From: a virus
Reading direction: 5' to 3' (one strand)
DNA length: 64,000 nucleotides
IMG/VR virus record: IMGVR_UViG_3300027851_001140
Coordinates: 1 to 64,000 of that record
Positions 40,635 through 52,549 of this stretch are shown here, piece after piece. The first letter of the stretch is position 1; every line of letters starts with the position of its first letter. The notes under the pieces are model-generated. The model searched no databases. It worked only from the letters and a program-made list of their open reading frames with translations, and had not been told where the DNA came from. The position numbers and the translations under genes were made by a program.

Positions 40635-40912
40635 CTAAGCACCATAATCTTCATGTTAGGTTTGGTAGGAAGTACCGGAGCAGGTACTAAAGGTCGGATG
40701 AAAAGCCATGCGTTGTTCTGCATCACAAAATCAACAGCGCTGACTCGACTTTTTATGATAGTAGAGAACCAAGAATGTATCTCTTCTACCTTCTGGTCGA
40801 AGAATTCAATATCGTAGCCATCATCTGGACGAGAGGGGTCGGAATGAGTATCGACCAAAAGAAGCACATGGTGTGTCTTAAGTGACTCCCATACTGGATT
40901 GTAGTCAGACAT
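40631..40912 (-). CDS. Hypothetical protein
   Basis: Coupled small ORF. Confidence 0.5.
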   Translation of the reverse strand: MSDYNPVWESLKTHHVLLLVDTHSDPSRPDDGYDIEFFDQKVEEIHSWFSTIIKSRVSAVDFVMQNNAWLFIRPLVPAPVLPTKPNMKIMVLR

Positions 40913-41945
40913 CAGACACCATAGACAACAAGGAATCTACTTCGGACTCTGCGAGAACCATGTCGATATCTTCGCCTCCTTTTGTCTTTATTCCACTCAA
41001 AAGCTTTTCCTTCAAAGAAGAATTCACGTCAAGAGACAACGAAGCGTCCTTATCTTCATGGACAAAGTGAACCTTTACAACATTGCTGGGCAGCTCACTT
41101 GGAAGGTCGTCCTTGGAGGAAAGGACCCACTTAACGTACGAATTAGGAGGCACCTCATCGTTTTTCTTGGCCACCACAAGTTGGTTAGAAGGTACAGGAA
41201 TAAAACGAGGAGATGTGGGCTCCTCTGTATCCACCAGAAGGACCCCACGGGGCCATCCATCACTAAACCTAGTCTGCACAGGGCTTCCGGAGTAGAAAGC
41301 GTTTGACGCTACTTCTTGAGGCTTGTGAATGTCACCCAGAGCCCAGTAAGTGACCGGAAGAGAGGAGTCGGGAGCTTCTTCCCCATCCTCCAGGCAGTAC
41401 ACTCCTCCTGTCTTCAACTGAATGTCAGTTTGAGACCCTCGTATTGTTTCGTGGCATACCATAATAAAGTTACTGTGGGGAACAAGCAAGGATGACTGCC
41501 TGAAGTCACTAACTGCCTTGAGAGACTCTGTTCTGAACCCATTCTTTTTATGGCACAACAAACAAAATACAGTGTCTCTTATACAGACGAACTGAGTTCT
41601 TTCTGTAATGGTGGAATTGGATAGTCTCCCGAAAGAAGACAGCATAGAAAGGTAGTGGAGAGCAGTGTACCCTGTTGCATCTATTCTATCATGATTTCCT
41701 GGTATCATGAGGATGTGGAAGCCAGCTGCATCGTAGGCTAAGATCTTCCTCTCCAAAAGTTCGCGGTCTTCTTGTGTGGCTGTGTTGGGATTATCAAAAA
41801 TATCCCCAGCAACGACTACAACATCTACATTATGGTCATAAGCTATGTCGAATATAGAGTCTATCATCTCCTCTTGCCTCCTAAAAGAGCCAGGAAGAGA
41901 ACTATTAACTCCAATGTGCCAATCAGCTGTATGAAGGAATTTCAT
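40905..41945 (-). CDS. sbcD: SbcD/Mre11-family metallophosphoesterase nuclease
   Basis: HTADWHIG, AGDIFD, PGNHD, YWALGDIHK, YSGSP. Confidence 0.9.
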   Translation of the reverse strand: MKFLHTADWHIGVNSSLPGSFRRQEEMIDSIFDIAYDHNVDVVVVAGDIFDNPNTATQEDRELLERKILAYDAAGFHILMIPGNHDRIDATGYTALHYLSMLSSFGRLSNSTITERTQFVCIRDTVFCLLCHKKNGFRTESLKAVSDFRQSSLLVPHSNFIMVCHETIRGSQTDIQLKTGGVYCLEDGEEAPDSSLPVTYWALGDIHKPQEVASNAFYSGSPVQTRFSDGWPRGVLLVDTEEPTSPRFIPVPSNQLVVAKKNDEVPPNSYVKWVLSSKDDLPSELPSNVVKVHFVHEDKDASLSLDVNSSLKEKLLSGIKTKGGEDIDMVLAESEVDSLLSMVSDV

Positions 41946-42571
41946 ATGTTAGGAAGTACCCCTTCATTCCTAAGGTAGTTCAGGATTAAGGAAGAGGCCT
42001 CCTCCCTAGAAAAGAACTTTCCGTTAGGAGGAGCGTGGCGAACGTAAGTCTCTCCGTTTCTGTGCCACAATCTGATCTCGTCTATGATGATTTGTTCAGT
42101 GGACAGCCTCATCTTAAACCTGACAAAGGTGAGGAAATGTCGTTTGCACATGAGCACCAAGCCATACCAACTTGCAACGCCAGAGTCTACCTTAACCTTG
42201 TGGAGGTTAAGTACAACAAAGAGACTTCTAGAGCGAAGCGGTAATATTATCTTTTCGTAAAGGGTCTCGTCTATAACTGTTATTCCTATCGTGTTGGCTA
42301 AAAACTGAGCCAGGGGAAGTATAAACTTGACCTCAGCCGCCTTCACTTGAGGAGGTACATCAGGGTAAGCAGAGTCTGATCTATAGGAATATTCGATATG
42401 GTCGTCTGGACCAACAGAATTAGGGTCCGTGTTACCCACTTCTATGGGTTTATGTGTGATCGGGTCATAGACCGTAGTATCCAAACGAGCCATAGGGTCC
42501 TTGGCAAGTTTTCCCTCCTCAAGAAGATCTAAAACTGAGTTAGAACTCTGTGATGGTCTTTCATGCGTCAT
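41942..42571 (-). CDS. Hypothetical protein
   Basis: Coupled ORF. Confidence 0.55.
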   Translation of the reverse strand: MTHERPSQSSNSVLDLLEEGKLAKDPMARLDTTVYDPITHKPIEVGNTDPNSVGPDDHIEYSYRSDSAYPDVPPQVKAAEVKFILPLAQFLANTIGITVIDETLYEKIILPLRSRSLFVVLNLHKVKVDSGVASWYGLVLMCKRHFLTFVRFKMRLSTEQIIIDEIRLWHRNGETYVRHAPPNGKFFSREEASSLILNYLRNEGVLPNI

Positions 42572-42577
42572 AAGTAA

Positions 42578-43087
42578 TCACAGGTCCTTTGACCCAAGGA
42601 AAGAACGAATATGTGACCTACACACTTTTGTGGCAGATCTAATGGAGGTGCAGGAGGAAGTAGTCTCTACACCAGAGGAAGAAACCAAAGAAAGTGAGGA
42701 CAAGGAAGCTTCTTTTCCTTTGTAGGAAGCGTGCAGACTTAGTACCCTGTTACCACAATGAAATACAACAATAGGGGCCCAAGTAGACCTTACTATTCCC
42801 CGTCTTTTTGTAGACGAAAGGTTTAGAAAATCAAATACACAGTAAGTATTGGAAGCCAAGGAAGAGTCGGACTCTAGAGATAAAGAAAAAAGAGAAGAGA
42901 CATCGACGTTCAACTGCAGGGCCAACTCGTTAGCGAGCGGCCTAAGTTGAAGCATAAACTTGCTTGACACTACCCTAAATCGTGTCTCTTGGAAATCGAT
43001 AACACGATCCTCAAGAGACACGATGGGATTATCGGCCAATGTAAAGCGGCTTCCCGTATGTCGTACGATGGTACGAGTAGTTTCCAT
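42578..43087 (-). CDS. Hypothetical protein
   Basis: Fills the gap between recA and the next gene. Confidence 0.5.
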   Translation of the reverse strand: METTRTIVRHTGSRFTLADNPIVSLEDRVIDFQETRFRVVSSKFMLQLRPLANELALQLNVDVSSLFSLSLESDSSLASNTYCVFDFLNLSSTKRRGIVRSTWAPIVVFHCGNRVLSLHASYKGKEASLSSLSLVSSSGVETTSSCTSIRSATKVCRSHIRSFLGSKDL

Positions 43088-43108
43088 CGTAAAACCTTTA
43101 CAGGTTGG

Positions 43109-44383
43109 TCAGGCCAAAGTAACCTCTGTCGCAATATCCTCGTCAGAAGACTTTTTTCTCTTCTTCTTCTCTGGCGGAGCACTAACTACAGGGGCAGACC
43201 CCAAAACTGCTTCAAGCTCGTTCTCTTCGTCGTACGCAGCTTCCTCGTCAAATTCATAAATGTTGTCCCAGTCATTGGCCTTAAAGTATAGAGAATAAGC
43301 CAGATCAGATTCTAACTGAGATCGGCACGCACGTCTAAACTCGTTAGAGCACAGAACCGTGTATAGGTCATCAGTGTAGAATGCCTGATTATTCCAGCTG
43401 TAGTCTTCCTCTACCTGAAGACAGATCATCTTCTTGTTTCCAGATTTTTGTATTTGCCCAGTCAACTCTAGGTACCCAAGACCATCACGACCCCGCTCAA
43501 ATCCCCTACCGAAAGCCACTGCCAACATCTCCTTACACTCAAGGAAAGGAGGAAATTGCTTGTTTTTCTTTGTAGAAATGTTGATAAAACGCATGGATCG
43601 ATTTCGCTCCACAAACGCCTTTTGTACTGCAGAGGCTCTAAAATTAAGGTCAGGATAAAAACGCCATGCTTGTCCTCCTGGCTCATACTCCGGTGACCCA
43701 AACATCTGACCAGGATTCAGTCGTATCTGATTTGTAGCAAATAAAGATACGTTCTTCCTTCCTAGCTTGGATTTTATAAGAGGCAAATACATAGAGTGGA
43801 CCGAAGCAGCGGCAGCCATTCTTACGTTTTCATCGTCCTCCTCGATAGACTCTGGAAGCATAGATGCAACGGAATCTATTACCACCAATCCCTGAGGCTT
43901 GGGTCGTCCACCGTCTTCTGCTGGAGAGTAGTCGGGAAAAGAACGAAGAAGACGAGCAATCGTACGGTATGTCTGCTCTGCAGTAGAGGGCTGATAATAA
44001 TGAAAGTAGGGGTTCTTACTTCCATCAGACAGCCTCATTCTAACCCCCAAAGCGTGGAAGTATTTAGCGTCAGATGCAACCTCATGGTCAAAAAAGAAAA
44101 CAGGCACCTGTGTTCGAGTGGCATTGGCAATAAGATGCCCAGCCATAGTGGACTTACCGCTGCCCTCCGGGCCAAACACCTTAGAAACTTTTCCAGGAGG
44201 AAGTCCCCCTCCTGTAAGAAGGTCTAGAATAAGAGAGCCGAAACTAATAGCTCCCTGGACGTAAGACCCTCTATCGAGGAGAACAGGAGGATTGTCTAGG
44301 TCCTTTCCTATGCTCTCTGCTCTTTCTGCCAGATCTGAAATAGAAGTAAAGTAATTCTTTTCTACGGGTTTTTTCTTTGCCAT
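43109..44383 (-). CDS. recA: RecA/UvsX recombinase
   Basis: LDLLTGGGLPPG, Walker A GPEGSGKST, VVIDSVA, TNQIR, PGGQAWRFY, KKNK; ATG 44383 with AGGA RBS. Confidence 0.92.
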   Translation of the reverse strand: MAKKKPVEKNYFTSISDLAERAESIGKDLDNPPVLLDRGSYVQGAISFGSLILDLLTGGGLPPGKVSKVFGPEGSGKSTMAGHLIANATRTQVPVFFFDHEVASDAKYFHALGVRMRLSDGSKNPYFHYYQPSTAEQTYRTIARLLRSFPDYSPAEDGGRPKPQGLVVIDSVASMLPESIEEDDENVRMAAAASVHSMYLPLIKSKLGRKNVSLFATNQIRLNPGQMFGSPEYEPGGQAWRFYPDLNFRASAVQKAFVERNRSMRFINISTKKNKQFPPFLECKEMLAVAFGRGFERGRDGLGYLELTGQIQKSGNKKMICLQVEEDYSWNNQAFYTDDLYTVLCSNEFRRACRSQLESDLAYSLYFKANDWDNIYEFDEEAAYDEENELEAVLGSAPVVSAPPEKKKRKKSSDEDIATEVTLA

Positions 44384-44434
44384 GATATTCCTGTTAGTGT
44401 GTATAGTTATCAACGGGCCGACGAAATGAGGAGC

Positions 44435-46177
44435 CTACTGGCTGGCCAAACTGGTAGGCTGTTCCTGAACAATGCGTCCTTTTTCGTCGAAGCGAACATA
44501 ACAAGTCCACCCCGAATTATCCTCTGCGTAGGGCTTTCCTTTTGACGAGAGGATAACCTTCATTTTAGACCCCGAAGGAGACAAAAAAGAAGGGCGAAGA
44601 TTTTTCACACGAGAAGAGGAGAGTAGAGTGTCAGACCACTCCCAGTACTCCGATACAAATTCGTTAATAGGTCTTCCCTCAGCCACCCGACCAACGTCTT
44701 CTTCTACTTGAGCGGCCATGTCGGGGTCCAATAAGTCTGGAAGGGCTCTGCGAACAGCAGTCAGCACAACTTCTCCTTTGGGAGTGAGAGTGGCAACGCC
44801 TCCGCCTCCAAATTCCACGTAAGAATTATTGCTCATCCAGTTTAGAGCCTTGGTATAAGTGTGAGGAAACCCAAAAAAATGATTTGTCATCCATTCGATG
44901 ATGGAGTTGTAATGCATTCTGACGGGAGACCTAGAAGTAACTTCCACTACGGAAACATCTGCCAGCACTGAGTCCGACTCTATTGGAGAATGACTAGGCT
45001 CAAATATTCTGCCACTAAGCTGGTGCCACCCCGGTGTATGAACCGAAGTACCCTGTATCGACCCCATAAGGTCGGAAGAGTTGTAGAAGGAAGCAGAGTG
45101 ACACTCTATCAAAGAATTAGTACCTTGAGACCCTGCAGTCCTAAACCATATGGCAGAGTACACATCCCTTTCCTTAGACCTTAAGTCTGTTTTGGAAGGC
45201 TCAAAGTAAAAGTCGGTAGGATATATACCAAAGGAATTTCCAACAAAAGAGGGCGAAGCGGAAAGATGGGCACCCATCATCCTTTCGGAGATGAAGTCCC
45301 TGACTCTATTGGCTGCTGCCAATGGCATTTCATTTCCGCTTACCATTGGATAAGACGTAAGCCCTCTAGAATATAGAGAAGTACAGATTTCTATACAGGA
45401 TCTTGCGTCTATGCCGTAACGAGAAAAGCAAAACGAAAGAAGAGAAGAAAGAGAAAATAACCCAGGTACAACACTGGCCTTCTTATTGGAGGAGTATACG
45501 ACAGAAGATGATTTTAACTTTTGTGCAAAATCTTCTGCTTCGTTTTCTGAGGCAAAGACCCACGATGAATAAGATCCATCACTGAGTAACGCTCTAACCT
45601 CATAGGCTTTGTCGGGACGAAATTTTCTTATACTACGTTCTCTTCGTGCGACAGCCGATAACACTGGAATAAAATAGCTGAGTTCGACATCTCTACCCAG
45701 GATAGAGGATATACGAGGAGACAGCACAAATCTAGCTATCCTATCTACAACTTCTCTAGCCAGGAAGGAGTTAGAGAGGTTGGTATCTATGCAGTCGCCA
45801 GAACTTTCTAGAGAAGCGGATAAATTTGTCAAATCAAGTGACGAAGGTCGTATTCTTCTGAAGGTTTTTCCAGAATTAGAGGCAGTGTGCTGTAGATGTT
45901 GGGATAGCAGTTCTCCTTCTGGAGAAAAGTCAAAAAAAGAAACAACCTCTGAGGAGGTTTCTACAGCCTTCTTTAGGAGAGAGAAGGTATATGGATTAGT
46001 AATCTTCCAAGACGGAGAGAAGTCTTTCCTTCCAAACCCTATGCTAGACTTGGGAAGGTCCATGTAGTGGCCATTTGTGCTTACCACATGTACGTCATTA
46101 TTTAATGACATCTTCCTAAGACTGTTTAGGAGGGCGGACCTCTTTCCTTCTGTCTCTACCACAAGAAGTATCATCAC
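44435..46177 (-). CDS. Type IA topoisomerase-like protein with degenerate active site
   Basis: LLVVE..K, TNGHYMDLP, DFSPEGE, LYSRGLTSYP, GIYPT, PGW, LTPKGEV are colinear with TopA. Confidence 0.75.
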   Translation of the reverse strand: MMILLVVETEGKRSALLNSLRKMSLNNDVHVVSTNGHYMDLPKSSIGFGRKDFSPSWKITNPYTFSLLKKAVETSSEVVSFFDFSPEGELLSQHLQHTASNSGKTFRRIRPSSLDLTNLSASLESSGDCIDTNLSNSFLAREVVDRIARFVLSPRISSILGRDVELSYFIPVLSAVARRERSIRKFRPDKAYEVRALLSDGSYSSWVFASENEAEDFAQKLKSSSVVYSSNKKASVVPGLFSLSSLLSFCFSRYGIDARSCIEICTSLYSRGLTSYPMVSGNEMPLAAANRVRDFISERMMGAHLSASPSFVGNSFGIYPTDFYFEPSKTDLRSKERDVYSAIWFRTAGSQGTNSLIECHSASFYNSSDLMGSIQGTSVHTPGWHQLSGRIFEPSHSPIESDSVLADVSVVEVTSRSPVRMHYNSIIEWMTNHFFGFPHTYTKALNWMSNNSYVEFGGGGVATLTPKGEVVLTAVRRALPDLLDPDMAAQVEEDVGRVAEGRPINEFVSEYWEWSDTLLSSSRVKNLRPSFLSPSGSKMKVILSSKGKPYAEDNSGWTCYVRFDEKGRIVQEQPTSLASQ

Positions 46178-46476
46178 ATATTCCTAATGCACTCATACAG
46201 AGAGGATTCGTCAAAAACTCCTGTAATACTGCAGGATAGCTTTCCTCTCACGAAGAATCTTAGTTGAGGAACTCTCACACAAGAAAACTCTTCTAGTGAA
46301 GGGTCTGACTTAACATGAACGTAAAATACGGAACACCCGCTGGAATATAGTCTGTTCTCGTTTGAACTAACGATAGACATGGCACGAGAGGACAGAACAG
46401 AATCCTTTGTGTACAAAAGGACACATACGAGTTTACCTGACCTTATGGCGTGTAACGCGTCTTCTTCTTGATTCAT
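46174..46476 (-). CDS. Thioredoxin-fold protein lacking CxxC
   Basis: LVCVLLYTKDSVLS, FYVHV, VRVPQLRFFVRGK..ITG follow the Trx pattern; ATG at 46476. Confidence 0.55.
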   Translation of the reverse strand: MNQEEDALHAIRSGKLVCVLLYTKDSVLSSRAMSIVSSNENRLYSSGCSVFYVHVKSDPSLEEFSCVRVPQLRFFVRGKLSCSITGVFDESSLYECIRNM

Positions 46477-46515
46477 AAAATATAGGGGCTCTTGCACAAG
46501 AGCCCCTATATTTTA
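46476..46515 (-). terminator. Perfect inverted repeat, probable intrinsic terminator after the SSB gene
   Basis: TAAAATATAGGGGCTCTTG-ca-CAAGAGCCCCTATATTTTA (19-bp arms). Confidence 0.7.
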
Positions 46516-46522
46516 CAATATG

Positions 46523-47575
46523 TCAAACGTCAAATTCGTCGTCGAATTCTTCGTCATCATCTTCGTCTACAGGAGGCTTCTTTGGCTTAGCCTTCTTAGG
46601 CGGAGGTGAGTCCTCGTCGTCATCTTCGTCGTCATCCTCAACAGGAGGCTTCTTTGGCTTAGCCTTCTTTGGTGGTACAGACTCAAATTCGTCGTCATCG
46701 TCGTCTACAGGAGGCTTCTTTGGCTTAGCCTTCTTAGGCGGAGGTGAGTCTTCTTCCTCGTCGTCGTCATCCTCTACAGGAGGCTTCTTTGGCTTAGCCT
46801 TCTTAGGCTCCTCGAATTCGTCGTCGTCATCGTCGTAAGACTTCTTGGACTTTCGGGAAGAAGAGGGAGCCTCGAAATCATCGTCGTCGTCATCTTCAGA
46901 CTTCTTCGATTTCTTCGACTTTGAAGGAACTTTTTCGTCCGAATCAAAATACCCGTGACGTGTGAGATCTGCACGTATCTTATGCACGTCAGGTTCGGCC
47001 CAAAGCTCGTCAAAAGCAATCAACTCAAGAGAGGTTTCTTCCTCGGATAGAGGGGATCTGTCACCCTTTTGAACCTGCCACTCAATGCCCCCTCTTTTTT
47101 TGGTGCGCTGCTTCTGCATAAAGACATCACAACCAAATCTAGGATGAGCAATGGACCTCGCTTCCCCCTTTACTGAGTTAAGCTTCTTTAGGTCTAAAAG
47201 CTGCCTAAGAACGGTGGGAGGAATATCTAAGGCCCGTATAGGATCGCTGTCTCCCTTCCCCTGAGAGAGACGATCTATGACGTTAATCAGATATTTGATG
47301 GAGGGACGAAGTCCAGCCTCGCAAGCAGGACATCCTCCTTGCTTTGAGGGAGCCTCTTTGTCTGGATCCCAATTTGCACAATCAACAGGATAGCGTTTTA
47401 CTTGCCCTTCTTTGTTAGTAAACTCAATCCAGTGTTGAGCATAACTATAGACGCCTCCTACAATCCTAAACTGATACCATTCATCGAGTTTAGGGAGGTC
47501 AGCTAGGGGGATATCTTCTTTCCAGTTTTTGTCACGGGTACGGGGATTAGTTTCGTCGAAATCTTTAAGTGCCAC
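46523..47575 (-). CDS. gp32-like single-stranded DNA-binding protein
   Basis: QFRIVG..QHW..DC..GCPAC..YLINVIDR..HPRFGCDVF; long acidic tail ending DDEFDV. Confidence 0.75.
   Translation of the reverse strand: MALKDFDETNPRTRDKNWKEDIPLADLPKLDEWYQFRIVGGVYSYAQHWIEFTNKEGQVKRYPVDCANWDPDKEAPSKQGGCPACEAGLRPSIKYLINVIDRLSQGKGDSDPIRALDIPPTVLRQLLDLKKLNSVKGEARSIAHPRFGCDVFMQKQRTKKRGGIEWQVQKGDRSPLSEEETSLELIAFDELWAEPDVHKIRADLTRHGYFDSDEKVPSKSKKSKKSEDDDDDDFEAPSSSRKSKKSYDDDDDEFEEPKKAKPKKPPVEDDDDEEEDSPPPKKAKPKKPPVDDDDDEFESVPPKKAKPKKPPVEDDDEDDDEDSPPPKKAKPKKPPVDEDDDEEFDDEFDV
46545..46830 (-). repeat. Four tandem PKKAKPKKPPV[D/E]-acidic repeats in the SSB tail
   Basis: Repeated plus-strand aggaggcttctttggcttagccttctt units. 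Confidence 0.85.
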
Positions 47576-47610
47576 GGAGTATACCTTTTACGTAAGGGGG
47601 TGAAACGATT

Positions 47611-49560: not shown

Positions 49561-52488
49561 TCAAGTCTTTTGATCAACCAAGTCTACTACTTCGCACACT
49601 CCTCCTGCGCAGGCTAAGGTCTGACTGCCAGCAGTCATGTCGTACGTTTCGTAGTTTCTCAAAGAAGACCAATCTACATCCGTAGGAAGATCAGCAGATA
49701 GTTTTAGATAAGTGTCTTCGTCTATCTCCTCGTAAGGAGCTTGCCTATACACGTGGTCTGAATGTGGAAGAAAAGATATACCAGAAATTGAGTCTAGGTT
49801 GTTCCAAACCCAAGAGCCTACTTCGAGAAACTCAGAATCTTTGTAGTACACAGTAATAGAAGGCTTGTGCTCGCACCAGTAATCTTGATAAATTTTCCAC
49901 AACTTAAGCTGACTAAGAGCCGCTACGGCACTAGTAGTGACGGAGGTTTCTGGTGCACGTATCGGAAAAGAGAACACCCATACGTTTGGGTTCATCAAGT
50001 CTTCTTCGCACGGAAATCCCCACATTTGCATCATGCTTGCCAGAGGGTCTTTCTTATCGCACCTAACCCTTCTAACGTAGAACTTAGAAAACCTTGGATG
50101 AATTCCGCTCGCAGAATCTACCAACTGACTCACGGTGCCGCTGGGCTTTACACAAGTAATGGCTGTACTTTGGCTTATTTTTAGTTTTCCTGACCACTCC
50201 TTGTTAACGTCTATAGCCTTCTGACGCATTTGAGTAAGCCAAGAGGAAAGGTCGGACGAATCAGGATCTCCAAGTATGGGGTGGTCCATTATGCCAGTGA
50301 GAGAAACGCCTAGAAGCCTTTCTTCTTCTGTATTCTTCTTCCAGATGGGTCTGAGATACCTAAAGTTTGTAACAGTAGACTGCAGCGTCCCCAAAATAGT
50401 GGCGGCTTCCACCTTTAGAAGCAAGTCGGCTAACGTGTCAGAAGGTCTGACAACAACCTCAGACAAGTTGCAAAACTGATAGGGCCTAAGGATAATTTCA
50501 CTACAAGGATTTGTACCAAAATCGTAGTCTGAATCGCGGCGACCATTTTTGGCTACTTGATTTTTACTGGCAGCCCGGCTGAATATGCCCCTCTCTCCCG
50601 ACTTAGACTCGTATAAACTAAGCCATTCGTTTAGAAATACCTGGTAGTCAGGTCTTTCTGTGTAAGAAGCGGAATTATTGGCTAACTGCCTGTGGGGATA
50701 TTCTACCCACCATTGGCCACTTTTAGCTAAACGCATTCTATCATCAGATAAGTTTGAGAGACTGATCAGAGCAGATCTTCGAACTCCTCCCACTACCACA
50801 ATGTCAGCAATCTTACACACTAGATCATGACATTCTAAGGAAGAAAGCTTCCTTCCTGCTGCTTTCTTGAAAAGCGCTACGCAAAACTTAAATAAACTTT
50901 CAAGTGGAGCAGGTCCGGATGCGCGTCCTCCAAACGTCTTGAGGCGAGCCCCTGCAGGTCGTATCTTAGATAGGTCCCACCGAGGAATAGTACCTGAGTA
51001 CAAAAGACTGATAAGTTGGCGAAGGGAAGAGGCCCACCCTATTTTAGAGTCTGCAACAGATATAACAGTATCAACCTCATAAAAGGTGTCCGCCACATCG
51101 GGCAATTTACTGACATACTGTCTTTCTACAGAGAACCCTACGCCAGTGCCACACATCAGTATGTACATCAGCTCGTCAAAAGATCTGACGTGATCTATGG
51201 GTAGGTAGGAACAGTTTCCTGTTACCAAGCCCATATCCAGTACAAAAGTATTTGTGTCAGGGACCTCGGCACAAAAAACCTCGGACAAGGTAGTTTCACC
51301 AGAGAATCCGGTGAATACATAGTGAGATTCCAGAGGCTTAAAGTTCTTTCTCTTACGATCTATCAAAAAATCGTCTGAACACATAGAAGAACGACTGAAG
51401 GACAAGCACCATAATTTCTTTGTGCGCTTACCAAAGTTGGTGTCTTCTGGATATTCGTACTTAGATTGAACAACGTACCCTAAACGAGAGGCTACTCTAT
51501 TAACCCAGGAAATCTCATTCGACCCAACGGCAAGACTTACTTGACTACTTGCACTTACTGTACCGTCTGCTGCAAGCCAGCCGCGCATGAATCCGAGCAA
51601 GTACTGATCGGTCTCGTTCTCCGATGGGAGTTCTTTAAGTTCATGTGTCTTAGCGAAAGATCCATACATCATCACTACGGGGTCTCCTCCGTAAGAAGGA
51701 GGATAAGATACAGGGTACTCAGAGAACCAAGGAAGAGTGTCCTCTTTGTCAGAGCAAATACGTATGTGATACCCCTTAAGCCTCTCCTGAGCATACGTAG
51801 CAGTTCCATCCCCATAAATAAACCCGTGCTGTACGCCAAGCCTGTAGTCCAAGGAGTCCGGGTCAGGCTTTGGACCCGCTACGAACTTGATGCGATCTCC
51901 GGGCTGGAGCTTCTCTGTTGGGACTACAGTACCATCGACAAGAACCCAACGGTGATTAAGAGTGCACCTAACTTCCTTACGAGTATTGGAGTTTAGTCGG
52001 AAGTTTGCCTGAACAACGGGTTGTTCGCCGTAAGACTTAAATGTGGCACGTACCCAGCGACCCTCTACGTTCAAAACTGTGCAGGAAGATCCAGAGAGAG
52101 TACTTATGGGCACAAGGCCGTGCTCATAAGTAAGAACAAGGGTGTCACCTGACACTGGGTTGTACCCAGCAACCGAATCCTTTGTGAGTGCCTTTCCTGC
52201 CGTCATTAGAGCGCGCATGGAAGGCATGGATTTCAGATTTATGATATAGTCTCTCAAAAATCTCCTAGTCTCTTCATATTCAGAGCTAGAAGTAGAGGAA
52301 GACAACAAAACTTCGTCAAAAAAACTAAGGTACCTGTCTACTGTCTCATCCCAAGTCTCTCGTCTCTCCTCTGCTTCTATCCATCGAGAATAGCGAGACA
52401 AATGAATGAACTGTGAGTACAGTGGAGTAGACGTGTTCTTATAAAAGGAATCATGGGTGCTTAAGAAAGAGGTACCAGGTTCAGTCAT
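49561..52488 (-). CDS. nrdJ: Class II (adenosylcobalamin) ribonucleotide reductase, RTPR type, intein-containing
   Basis: RRETWDETVDRY, PSMRALMTAG, N|CSY, GTGVGFSVE, GGVRRSA, TNPCSEI, KPSGTVSQL, C-terminal CAGGVC; start at ATG 52488 with AGGA RBS. Confidence 0.93.
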   Translation of the reverse strand: MTEPGTSFLSTHDSFYKNTSTPLYSQFIHLSRYSRWIEAEERRETWDETVDRYLSFFDEVLLSSSTSSSEYEETRRFLRDYIINLKSMPSMRALMTAGKALTKDSVAGYNPVSGDTLVLTYEHGLVPISTLSGSSCTVLNVEGRWVRATFKSYGEQPVVQANFRLNSNTRKEVRCTLNHRWVLVDGTVVPTEKLQPGDRIKFVAGPKPDPDSLDYRLGVQHGFIYGDGTATYAQERLKGYHIRICSDKEDTLPWFSEYPVSYPPSYGGDPVVMMYGSFAKTHELKELPSENETDQYLLGFMRGWLAADGTVSASSQVSLAVGSNEISWVNRVASRLGYVVQSKYEYPEDTNFGKRTKKLWCLSFSRSSMCSDDFLIDRKRKNFKPLESHYVFTGFSGETTLSEVFCAEVPDTNTFVLDMGLVTGNCSYLPIDHVRSFDELMYILMCGTGVGFSVERQYVSKLPDVADTFYEVDTVISVADSKIGWASSLRQLISLLYSGTIPRWDLSKIRPAGARLKTFGGRASGPAPLESLFKFCVALFKKAAGRKLSSLECHDLVCKIADIVVVGGVRRSALISLSNLSDDRMRLAKSGQWWVEYPHRQLANNSASYTERPDYQVFLNEWLSLYESKSGERGIFSRAASKNQVAKNGRRDSDYDFGTNPCSEIILRPYQFCNLSEVVVRPSDTLADLLLKVEAATILGTLQSTVTNFRYLRPIWKKNTEEERLLGVSLTGIMDHPILGDPDSSDLSSWLTQMRQKAIDVNKEWSGKLKISQSTAITCVKPSGTVSQLVDSASGIHPRFSKFYVRRVRCDKKDPLASMMQMWGFPCEEDLMNPNVWVFSFPIRAPETSVTTSAVAALSQLKLWKIYQDYWCEHKPSITVYYKDSEFLEVGSWVWNNLDSISGISFLPHSDHVYRQAPYEEIDEDTYLKLSADLPTDVDWSSLRNYETYDMTAGSQTLACAGGVCEVVDLVDQKT
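51214..52158 (-). mobile_element. Class 3 intein (315 aa) with LAGLIDADG homing endonuclease
   Basis: Interrupts GYN|CSY. Starts PVSGDT; block B TLNHRW; block F VFCAEV; block G LVTGN|C; LAGLIDADG helices GFIYGDG and GWLAADG. Confidence 0.9.
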
Positions 52489-52518
52489 GTTTCTTCCTAT
52501 AAAGTGTACAGACACAAA

Positions 52519-52549
52519 AGGCAACATACCTAGTTAAAAGGTGTTGCCT
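52519..52549 (-). terminator. Bulged hairpin with T-tract upstream of nrdJ
   Basis: Minus strand AGGCAACA-CCT..AGG-TA-TGTTGCCT followed by TTTGTGT. Confidence 0.5.

Follow-up and report, generated by a model that had tools for sequence, protein, structure and literature searches.

The gene at 44435..46174 on the minus strand of the window (the whole 64,000-nt stretch of DNA that was analysed, part of a jumbo-phage genome of roughly 400 kb) encodes a full-length homologue of type IA topoisomerases whose catalytic site is largely eroded, and our data show that it is nevertheless under purifying selection. The type IA active site is treated as invariant, and here a clade of huge phages keeps the toroid over the long term while dismantling the site. 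Sequence comparison and structure modelling suggest to us, with about an even chance of being right, that the protein is a non-relaxing, ssDNA-binding toroid, a topoisomerase re-used in the phage recombination and replication module.

Fold and active site of the topoisomerase homologue

The listed reading frame (44435-46177, minus strand) is open for 580 codons and starts with GTG at 46177, one codon upstream of an ATG at 46174. The ATG is likely the true start; it overlaps the TGA of the upstream gene (TGATG), and a 99%-identical database protein begins there. The product matches Pfam Topoisom_bac (PF01131) over residues 130-502 (E 5.1e-37, 128.3 bits versus a cut-off of 35.1) and, weakly, Toprim (E 0.002, 18.6 bits, under the cut-off of 23.1). 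In a phmmer search against the PDB it aligns with TopA of T. maritima (2gai, 4e-20) and of E. coli (1ecl, 2e-17), colinearly over residues 22-518. The intact, colinear frame described in the earlier note is what we see as well. Its AF2 model is of high quality (pLDDT 96.1, pTM 0.92), and in Foldseek the model is closest to the full-length TopA of E. coli (4rul, E 1.7e-38, TMq 0.82). The protein shows the Toprim and Topoisom_bac homology and the four-domain toroidal fold that define type IA enzymes; judged from sequence and model together, this likeness is not due to chance, and the proposal of a full-length homologue is upheld. Its score against the bacterial TopA equivalog model of NCBIfam (TIGR01051, topA_bact) is 96.7 bits, far under the cut-off of 456.4; the relatives P0003 and P0008 reach 196 and 181 bits. 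The parts of the gene to which we refer are the following.

44435..46174, minus strand: topo-IA-like CDS, 579 aa, ATG at 46174
46142..46156, minus strand: Toprim residues E8...K12 (E-T-E-G-K), E9/K13 in E. coli, both retained
45911..45931, minus strand: degenerate Toprim acidic motif D83-F-S85-P86-E87-G-E89 (canonical D-x-D-R-E-G-E), second Asp and Arg gone
45665..45688, minus strand: G-strand-binding site SAGRVQS, reading V-E-L-S-Y-F-I-P, with R195 and Q197 gone
45335..45358, minus strand: active-site strand T-S-Y276-P-M278-V-S-G (canonical I-T-Y-x-R-T-D-S)
45218..45235, minus strand: S-F-G-I-Y-P in place of H-E-A-I-R-P, with His, Glu and Arg gone
45008..45031, minus strand: clade-specific, strongly conserved domain-2 motif G-W-H-Q-L-S-G-R, from the clade alignment
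44855..44878, minus strand: F-F-G-F-P-H-T-Y in place of G-I-G-R-P-S-T-Y, from the alignment
44453..44605, minus strand: C-terminal four-stranded ribbon lacking Cys, counterpart of TopA's first C-terminal domain

Motif calls rest on HMMER alignments and on an alignment of 65 sequences. Each of the five changes that had been read from the letters alone is borne out by these alignments, at the positions given for it: DPDREGE has become DFSPEGE, VELSYFIP occupies the place of SAGRVQ, ITYMRTDS has become TSYPMVSG, AHEAIRP has become SFGIYP, with a short deletion immediately before it, and GIGRPSTY has become FFGFPHTY. The catalytic tyrosine, Tyr276 (Y319 in E. coli), is kept at 45350-45352, and the arginine two residues after it (Tyr+2) is replaced by Met278 (45344-45346). 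The acidic triad D111-x-D113-x-E115 is broken, D113 being replaced by Ser85, and next to it R114 is replaced by Pro86. R169, R195, Q197 and H365, which serve in G-strand binding or relay, are each replaced. What is retained comprises E8, K12, His37, D83, E87, E89, Tyr276 and Arg141/Arg146 (E. coli R168/R173). In 74 canonical relatives, 79 alignment columns reach a conservation of 80% or more; of these the window protein keeps 40, versus a median of 74 for the canonical proteins.

A jumbo-phage clade under constraint

Some 11 representative relatives group in a supported clade, two of them from complete phages of 392 and 424 kb (the one from the 392-kb phage, at L001:9992-11746, is less eroded than the window protein), and in a quick tree the grouping of the window protein with P0003-P0015 has an SH-aLRT support of 99. 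The window protein bears the shared signature (D-x-S/G-P..., T-Y-P-(Y/F/M), G-W-H-Q-L, L-R-P-x-F), and its nearest library family is phrog_13226 (E 1.4e-17), annotated as of unknown function. The INPHARED phage collection gave zero DNA matches and, at the protein level, three weak matches only, to faecal phage contigs that carry no annotation (24-30% identity). When the clade profile was used in a second, word-indexed search, no further members came up; a metagenome scan contributed one locus only (L008), and an exact 35-mer search of IMG/VR gave no second near-identical contig.

Erosion of the site is a property of the whole clade, present in graded form. Losses were counted against the 74 canonical relatives, in which the residues concerned are 92-99% conserved. 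The Tyr+2 arginine (E. coli R321), present in 96% of the canonical set, is kept in 0/11 representatives and is replaced by Tyr or Phe in all except the window protein, the only one with Met. Arg114, Gln197 and His365 are likewise absent from all 11; Arg169 is kept in one, Asp113 (the second Asp of DxD) in two, and Arg195 in six and lost in five. Nor are the nucleophile and the general acid universal: the catalytic Tyr is kept in 10/11 but is Ala in P0011, the Toprim Glu is Asp in P0010, where E115 is also Gly, and D111 has become Leu in P0008 and P0012 and Ser in P0015. Different lineages lose different catalytic residues, and selection on catalysis therefore appears relaxed. In the crown group, the equivalents of E8, K12, H37, D83, E87, E89 and Tyr276 are present in 5/5 representatives. 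The description of most motifs as eroded is accurate for the window lineage and too strong for its relatives, in which TDS, EAIRP and G(R/K)P are still there.

The topo-like gene is under purifying selection yet evolves fast. Strain variants show 8 synonymous versus 6 non-synonymous changes (pN/pS 0.23, p=0.007 against neutrality) and zero indels, and the same frame is found in independent metagenomes. The corresponding pN/pS is 0.05 for RecA and 0.09 for SSB; among three phages, the topo-like proteins are 41/32/39% identical versus 58-75% for RecA and 57-62% for SbcD. Between the four divergent loci (32-41% protein identity) synonymous sites are saturated. The window protein keeps 28/31 clade-signature residues. 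It has been suggested that the gene is not a decaying pseudogene, and these figures, together with the 580 open codons and the confident model, contradict the contrary view, that it is an incipient pseudogene of this phage lineage whose open frame is coincidental. We regard that view as scarcely credible, even though the terminal branch of the window protein is longer than those of its sisters (1.0 versus 0.2-0.44 in the quick tree) and its motif losses are more numerous than those of its relatives. Close homologues with intact motifs beside a freely drifting window copy, the pattern named in the earlier note as speaking against repurposing, are not what we found, the losses being clade-wide and the selection purifying.

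Within the protein, the motif windows are less conserved in the narrow clade than in the canonical set and are its least conserved parts. Conserved far more in the clade than in the canonical set are stretches of domain 2 (196-210, 376-390), residues 331-345, domain 4 (466-495) and the C-terminal domain, whose ribbon is conserved across the clade (LRP.F.SP ... FD.KG). Conservation has shifted towards domains 2 and 4 and the C-terminal ribbon.

Gene neighbourhood and possible roles

Gene order is identical in 4/4 loci (the window, L001, L002 and L008): SSB-like, thioredoxin-like, topo-like, RecA, two small ORFs, SbcD. The elements of this block in the window are listed below.

46523..47575, minus strand: SSB-like protein, phrog_15004
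46473..46518, minus strand: strong, terminator-like hairpin between the SSB-like and thioredoxin-like genes
46174..46476, minus strand: thioredoxin-fold protein of 100 aa without CxxC (redox-dead), upstream of the topo-like gene
43109..44413, minus strand: RecA/UvsX-like recombinase, next gene downstream of the topo-like gene
40905..41945, minus strand: SbcD/Mre11-like nuclease

RecA immediately adjoins the topo-like gene, as had been noted. The hairpin is preceded by TGTAAAAT, and its 3' arm extends to the ATG of the thioredoxin-like gene, whose stop overlaps the topo-like start by 1 nt in 3/4 loci. Complex prediction for these two neighbours gave a score of 0.01, which speaks neither for nor against a complex. 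The pair of small ORFs that separates RecA from SbcD has no Pfam match and no usable Atlas match. Complete relatives carry a single topo-IA-like gene, GyrB-like and GyrA/ParC-like genes (a type IIA topoisomerase) and an SbcC-like gene. Contigs of the metatranscriptome run X16 cover 45610-45736 and 46046-46263 of the topo-like gene; carry-over of DNA is possible, and they are not counted as expression. Joints in the acidic repeat of the SSB-like gene (46633-46899) have short sides of 21-25 letters that may stem from other organisms, and they were left unused.

We would explain these observations as follows. A small, jumbo-phage-specific clade descends from a type IA topoisomerase of the TopA type and retains the complete toroid (the Toprim domain, domains 2-4 and a single C-terminal ribbon), but has most likely abandoned the canonical cycle of cleavage, strand passage and religation, so that DNA would be neither relaxed nor decatenated. 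Published mutants agree with a loss of relaxation: changing R321 to an aromatic residue or mutating the D111/D113/E115 triad stops religation (PMC10079683, PMC7823277, PMC6101483), and an R169A change lowers relaxation about 150-fold (PMC3467081). The protein would then be a gate-shaped, ssDNA-binding accessory, encoded between SSB-like protein and RecA and near SbcD, that could hold or encircle ssDNA at gaps, forks or D-loops, perhaps in concert with the redox-dead thioredoxin-like protein, to which it is translationally coupled. Topological work would be left to the phage type IIA topoisomerase, as found in complete relatives. It should be noted that E8, K12, H37, D83, E87, E89 and Tyr276 persist in the window lineage despite its long branch. 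The acidic cluster and the nucleophile are not obviously needed for structure, and residual metal-dependent or cleavage-only chemistry is therefore possible. The earlier idea of a repurposed pseudo-topoisomerase gains from the erosion, the selection and the conserved block; its catalytic death does not follow, as the window protein and the majority of the clade retain Tyr, Glu/Lys and two acidic residues out of three, and a part as clamp or scaffold, or binding to RecA or SSB, is hypothetical.

The same residues may instead belong to an active type IA topoisomerase whose site is unorthodox, for example a Topo III-like dissolvase of RecA intermediates, in which another residue or metal replaces the Arg and His. 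The intact fold, the equivalents of Tyr, Toprim Glu, Lys, D111, E115 and E117 kept in the crown group, those of R168 and R173, the purifying selection and a site beside SSB and RecA that suits a dissolvase all agree with this, but we consider it unlikely. PMC6101483 and PMC10079683 describe the Tyr+2 arginine, missing from all 11 representatives, as strictly conserved and required for transition-state stabilisation and rejoining; in addition His365, Gln197 and usually Asp113 are missing from the clade, one member lacks Tyr and others D111, the motif regions are the least conserved of the protein, and the topA equivalog score is well under its cut-off. If it acts as a decoy or in counter-defence, the protein would mimic type IA enzymes to absorb TopA-targeting factors of the host or of competitors, or inhibit partners of host topoisomerases. 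An enzyme shape with a degenerate site and fast evolution fits such a role as a general pattern only; the gene sits in a conserved core replication and recombination block and not in a variable accessory region, domain 2 and the C-terminal domain, both exposed at the surface, follow a conservation pattern that is specific to the clade and does not mimic canonical TopA, and no known TopA-targeting defence is linked to the gene, all of which makes this role very improbable.

A third kind of activity would be that of a self-trapping enzyme that cuts ssDNA, does not reseal it and stays bound through a 5'-phosphotyrosine, either damaging host DNA or, by a logic shared with Spo11 and rolling-circle Rep nickases, leaving a protein-capped nick with a free 3'-OH, to be processed by SbcCD and used by RecA for the start of recombination-dependent replication. 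Mutants of the DxD triad are religation-deficient, and the clade carries Tyr or Phe exactly where the self-trapping mutants R321W, R364W and R338W carry Trp. The residues of the cleavage step (Tyr, Glu9, D111) are retained for the most part, SbcD lies inside the block with an SbcC-like gene in complete relatives, and MRE11 is implicated in the removal of TOP3A adducts (PMC10079683). Against these points, P0011 has Ala for Tyr, other members have an altered Glu or D111, the window protein has the non-aromatic Met at Tyr+2 and has also lost T-D-S, E366, R369 and R493, the G-strand-positioning R195/Q197 and R169 are lost, and a stoichiometric suicide enzyme is costly. We judge self-trapping to be quite unlikely. 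The bolder form, in which the clade as a whole would be a natural self-trapping type IA enzyme whose protein-capped breaks pass to SbcCD and RecA for recombination-dependent replication, as a one-strand analogue of Spo11, or else poison host DNA, strikes us as a long shot.

The non-relaxing toroid, if indeed inert, would be a clear case of a topoisomerase repurposed as an accessory protein for handling DNA and a new candidate recombination mediator of jumbo phages; if the protein still cuts DNA, it would be a natural equivalent to the self-poisoning mutants with which the repair of topoisomerase adducts is studied. The automatic label 'DNA topoisomerase I', which one source already gives to a relative, is misleading under either reading. 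In a review that compares 224 jumbo phages, topoisomerases of types II and IB are listed and none of type IA (PMC7824862), and the literature, searched for jumbo-phage enzymes of type IA and for topoisomerases that have become pseudoenzymes, gave no matches.

Relation to known DNA-handling proteins

The closest known system is TopA (4rul/1ecl, 2gai), with which the window protein shares domain order, toroidal fold and one C-terminal ribbon (TM 0.78-0.82), as well as the catalytic Tyr, the Toprim Glu/Lys, the first Asp, EGE and R168/R173. It differs in lacking D113, R114, R169, R195, Q197, R321, T322-S324, H365, E366, R369 and R493, in a ribbon without Cys, in evolving faster than neighbouring core genes and in its equivalog score (96.7 versus 456.4 bits). 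In the engineered self-trapping mutants E. coli TopA R321W, human TOP3A R364W and TOP3B R338W, the residue at Tyr+2 is likewise non-basic and, as it usually is in the clade, aromatic, and DxD is broken in the clade as it is in the DxD-triad mutants. The engineered mutants, however, carry a single change in an otherwise intact site, whereas in the clade many more residues have been lost, with a non-aromatic Met at Tyr+2 of the window protein and no Tyr in one member.

RecR, a small oligomeric ring, is a non-catalytic Toprim-domain protein that encircles DNA, works with RecA and SSB and helps to load RecA. A paper on the Toprim family covering RecR appears as reference 56 of PMC7824862. The likeness is a precedent only; the window protein shares Toprim alone with RecR, which, unlike it, is not derived from a topoisomerase. 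In Spo11 (the relative of Topo VI-A) a topoisomerase has become a DNA breaker, and Mre11-Rad50 removes its covalent adduct before strand invasion by a RecA-family recombinase. The window protein may resemble this system in logic only, as a topoisomerase relative whose substitutions block resealing in model enzymes and whose gene lies beside those of RecA and an Mre11-like nuclease; it comes from another topoisomerase family, its cleavage is hypothetical, and it would act on one strand, where Spo11 acts on two.

Fold and motif state of the topoisomerase-like protein

The frame at 44435-46177 on the minus strand holds 580 open codons. Its start is likely the ATG at 46174, where a database protein (579 aa, 99% identical) also begins; this ATG and the TGA of the upstream gene share one A, as TGATG. 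Pfam Topoisom_bac matches residues 130-502 (5.1e-37), Toprim gives a weak, sub-threshold match, and phmmer against PDB sequences aligns residues 22-518 colinearly with TopA of T. maritima (4e-20) and E. coli (about 1e-17). An AlphaFold2 model based on 89 homologues (pLDDT 96.1, pTM 0.92) has full-length E. coli TopA (4rul) as its top Foldseek match (E 1.7e-38, TMq 0.82), with Topo III and reverse gyrase scoring weaker. As modelled, and by homology, the protein has the full TopA-type toroid and a single C-terminal ribbon domain, which is without zinc cysteines.

The erosion of catalytic motifs described in the earlier note was borne out at every motif, both in HMMER alignments to 1ecl and 2gai, from which E. 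coli numbering is taken, and in a 65-sequence alignment.

Table. Sites of E. coli TopA and their counterparts in the window protein
D111-x-D113-R114-E115-G-E: D83-F-S85-P86-E87-G-E89 (45911-45931, minus strand)
S-A-G-R195-V-Q197: V-E-L-S-Y-F-I-P
I-T-Y319-x-R321-T-D-S: T-S-Y276-P-M278-V-S-G (Tyr codon 45350-45352, minus strand)
H365-E-A-I-R369-P: F-G-I-Y-P, short deletion just ahead
G-I-G-R493-P-S-T-Y: F-F-G-F-P-H-T-Y
R169: Glu
Y177: Phe

Retained are E8 (E9 in E. coli), K12 (K13), H37, D83, E87, E89 and Tyr276, as well as R141 (R168), D145 and R146 (R173). The protein keeps 40 of the 79 columns that are at least 80% conserved among 74 canonical relatives, against a median of 74 in canonical proteins, and the NCBIfam topA equivalog model gives it 96.7 bits (cut-off 456.4).

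Erosion and selection in the clade

When 1.84 billion representatives were searched exhaustively and without a profile, 2405 homologues emerged, just 13 of which scored below 1e-30. About 11 representatives (P0003-P0006, P0008-P0012 and P0015, numbered as homologues from this search) group together as one clade (support 99, quick maximum-likelihood tree); the matches next in line are topoisomerases of the usual kind, with all motifs intact in the 65-sequence alignment.

Table. Catalytic residues (E. coli numbering) kept among the 11 clade representatives
R321: 0/11 (Tyr, Phe or Met instead)
H365, Q197, R114: 0/11 each
D113: 2/11
R169: 1/11 (Glu in nine)
R195: 6/11
R369, R493: 7/11 each

D-x-S-P-E-G-E and T-Y-P-(Y/F) are invariant in the crown group. 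The window's sub-lineage is further eroded, with T-D-S, E-A-I-R-P and G-R-P lost, and the Arg of G-R-P is also missing in P0013, the closest available fragment (64% identity). Tyr is replaced by Ala in P0011; the Toprim Glu by Asp and E115 by Gly in P0010; D111 by Leu in P0008 and P0012 and by Ser in P0015; K13 by Arg in P0008 and P0012. Because separate branches drop separate catalytic residues, the pattern is what relaxed selection on catalysis would produce. Sporadic degenerate lineages also occur among the top 150 matches, a list biased towards degenerate proteins by the query's own degeneracy: the metagenome proteins P0039, P0057, P0066, P0112, P0130, P0140 and P0154 have lost the Arg at Tyr+2 along with several further catalytic residues, and in five of the seven the Tyr is missing too. 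Degenerate proteins of this type may be a wider phenomenon.

Three recorded contigs encode the 99%-identical protein, whose motifs do not differ from those of the window protein, and near-identical DNA is present in sequencing runs of many studies. Across 43100-47600, no indels appear in the contigs of four runs (wastewater DNA, two; groundwater DNA, one; wastewater RNA, one); in the topoisomerase-like gene these contigs carry 8 synonymous and 6 non-synonymous variants (pN/pS 0.23), so many synonymous changes having a neutral probability of 0.007. The check proposed in the earlier note thus came out positive on both sides, the substitutions being common to related phages, in graded form across the 11 representatives, and the gene being under purifying selection; its view that an intact frame speaks against a decaying pseudogene holds as well. 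RecA and the SSB-like gene have pN/pS of 0.05 and 0.09, a difference from the topoisomerase-like gene that is not significant at these counts (Fisher p=0.26). Long-term divergence agrees: identity of the topoisomerase-like proteins among three phages is 41, 32 and 39%, against 58-75% for RecA and 57-62% for both SbcD and primase, and the terminal branch of the window protein is 1.0 versus 0.2-0.44 in its sisters (quick maximum-likelihood tree).

Constraint on the clade has moved away from the catalytic motifs. Compared in 15-residue windows with a much broader canonical set, the clade falls below canonical conservation exactly at these motifs (76-90, 136-150, 166-180, 256-285, 436-450) and lies far above it in domain 2, 196-210 and 376-390 (G-W-H-Q-L-S-G-R motif), at 331-345, in domain 4 at 466-495 and in the C-terminal ribbon. 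The window protein keeps 28 of the 31 clade-conserved positions that differ from canonical proteins.

Source phage and gene neighbourhood

The parent record (94,856 bp, 24% complete by CheckV) points to a phage genome of roughly 400 kb. Every gene in the window lies on one strand; around the topoisomerase-like gene are a DnaG-type primase, a sigma factor, RecA/UvsX, SbcD and the following features.

41942-43087, minus: two small ORFs between RecA and SbcD, 169 and 209 aa
46174-46476, minus: 100-aa thioredoxin-like protein
46473-46518, minus: terminator-like hairpin
46600-46900, minus: C-terminal part of the SSB-like gene, acidic and low-complexity
49561-52527, minus: class II ribonucleotide reductase, 988 aa
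53002-53844, minus: Cas4-like / PD-(D/E)xK exonuclease

Clade members occur on two complete jumbo-phage genomes (392 kb, and 424 kb with terminal repeats) and a 19.9-kb metagenome contig. All four loci share the order sigma, SSB-like, thioredoxin-like, topoisomerase-like, RecA, two small ORFs, SbcD. The complete relative genomes carry one topo-IA-like gene each, and GyrB-like, GyrA/ParC-like and SbcC-like genes elsewhere.

The thioredoxin-like protein has a thioredoxin fold (AF2 pLDDT 86, Foldseek TM 0.82 to thioredoxins) and a cis-Pro loop, C-V-R-V-P-Q-L-R, invariant in window and relatives, and is without the CxxC redox pair (S-V-L-S in the window, D-E-L-C in three relatives). Three of the four loci have a one-base overlap between its stop and the topoisomerase-like start, an arrangement predictive of translational coupling. 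The strong hairpin ahead of it (-29.9 kcal/mol, z -7.9) reaches its ATG with the 3' arm. Equivalent hairpins at L001:9644-9690 and L002:9640-9675 in relatives' loci (folded stretches -35.8 and -36.8 kcal/mol) have unrelated stem sequences, and L008, the metagenome locus, has none between the SSB-like and thioredoxin-like genes; a TGTAAAA(T/G) word lies directly upstream of the hairpin site in the window, L001 and L008.

The exonuclease (phrog_1706 2e-22, phrog_2506 3e-18) adjoins the primase and belongs to the same replication/recombination region. Both small ORFs, 41-64% identical between phages and without a match in Pfam, PHROG or Atlas, could be additional accessory proteins of recombination. 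Residues 305-385 of the reductase match phrog_4645, a family of phage endonucleases (2e-4), which would fit an inserted intein or homing endonuclease. Aligned contigs several times skip 48-260 nt in the acidic SSB-like region. This could reflect length polymorphism, or other organisms may be the source, given flanking matches of just 21-25 nt.

Possible functions

The Arg at Tyr+2 of E. coli TopA serves to stabilise the transition state; with an aromatic residue in its place, cleavage is Mg2+-dependent and resealing blocked (PMC6101483). Human TOP3A and TOP3B become self-trapping with the same substitution (PMC10079683), and D111/D113/E115 triad mutations, which are dominant lethal, prevent religation (PMC7823277). 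With R169A, relaxation falls about 150-fold and site choice shifts, and Y177S/A abolishes cleavage, DNA binding affinity being barely altered in either case (PMC3467081). Canonical relaxation by the window protein is unlikely because R321, H365, D113, R169, R195 and Q197 are absent and relatives can lose the Tyr; by analogy with these mutants, ssDNA binding could well persist.

The reading we favour, with an even chance of being right, is a non-relaxing ssDNA-binding toroid that would serve the recombination block, topological work being left to the phage type IIA enzyme. The repurposed pseudo-topoisomerase of the earlier note is partly supported in this form; the note's decoy option is without specific support and highly improbable, and a decaying gene, contradicted by the selection data, is less probable still. 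What weighs most against the favoured reading is the survival of E8, K12, H37, D83, E87, E89 and Tyr276 along the long branch of the window lineage, which leaves room for two other readings. These are an atypical but active type IA enzyme, which we consider doubtful, and an enzyme that cleaves without resealing, quite unlikely in our view even with an Mre11-like nuclease and RecA adjacent and natural substitutions in the clade that match those of the engineered self-trapping mutants.

The clade belongs to a very well known family, of which it forms a degenerate branch; we found no type IA topoisomerase homologues, active or degenerate, described in the literature on jumbo phages. RecR, which has a Toprim domain but no catalytic activity and acts with RecA as a ring around DNA, is a precedent to which the topoisomerase-like protein may be likened.
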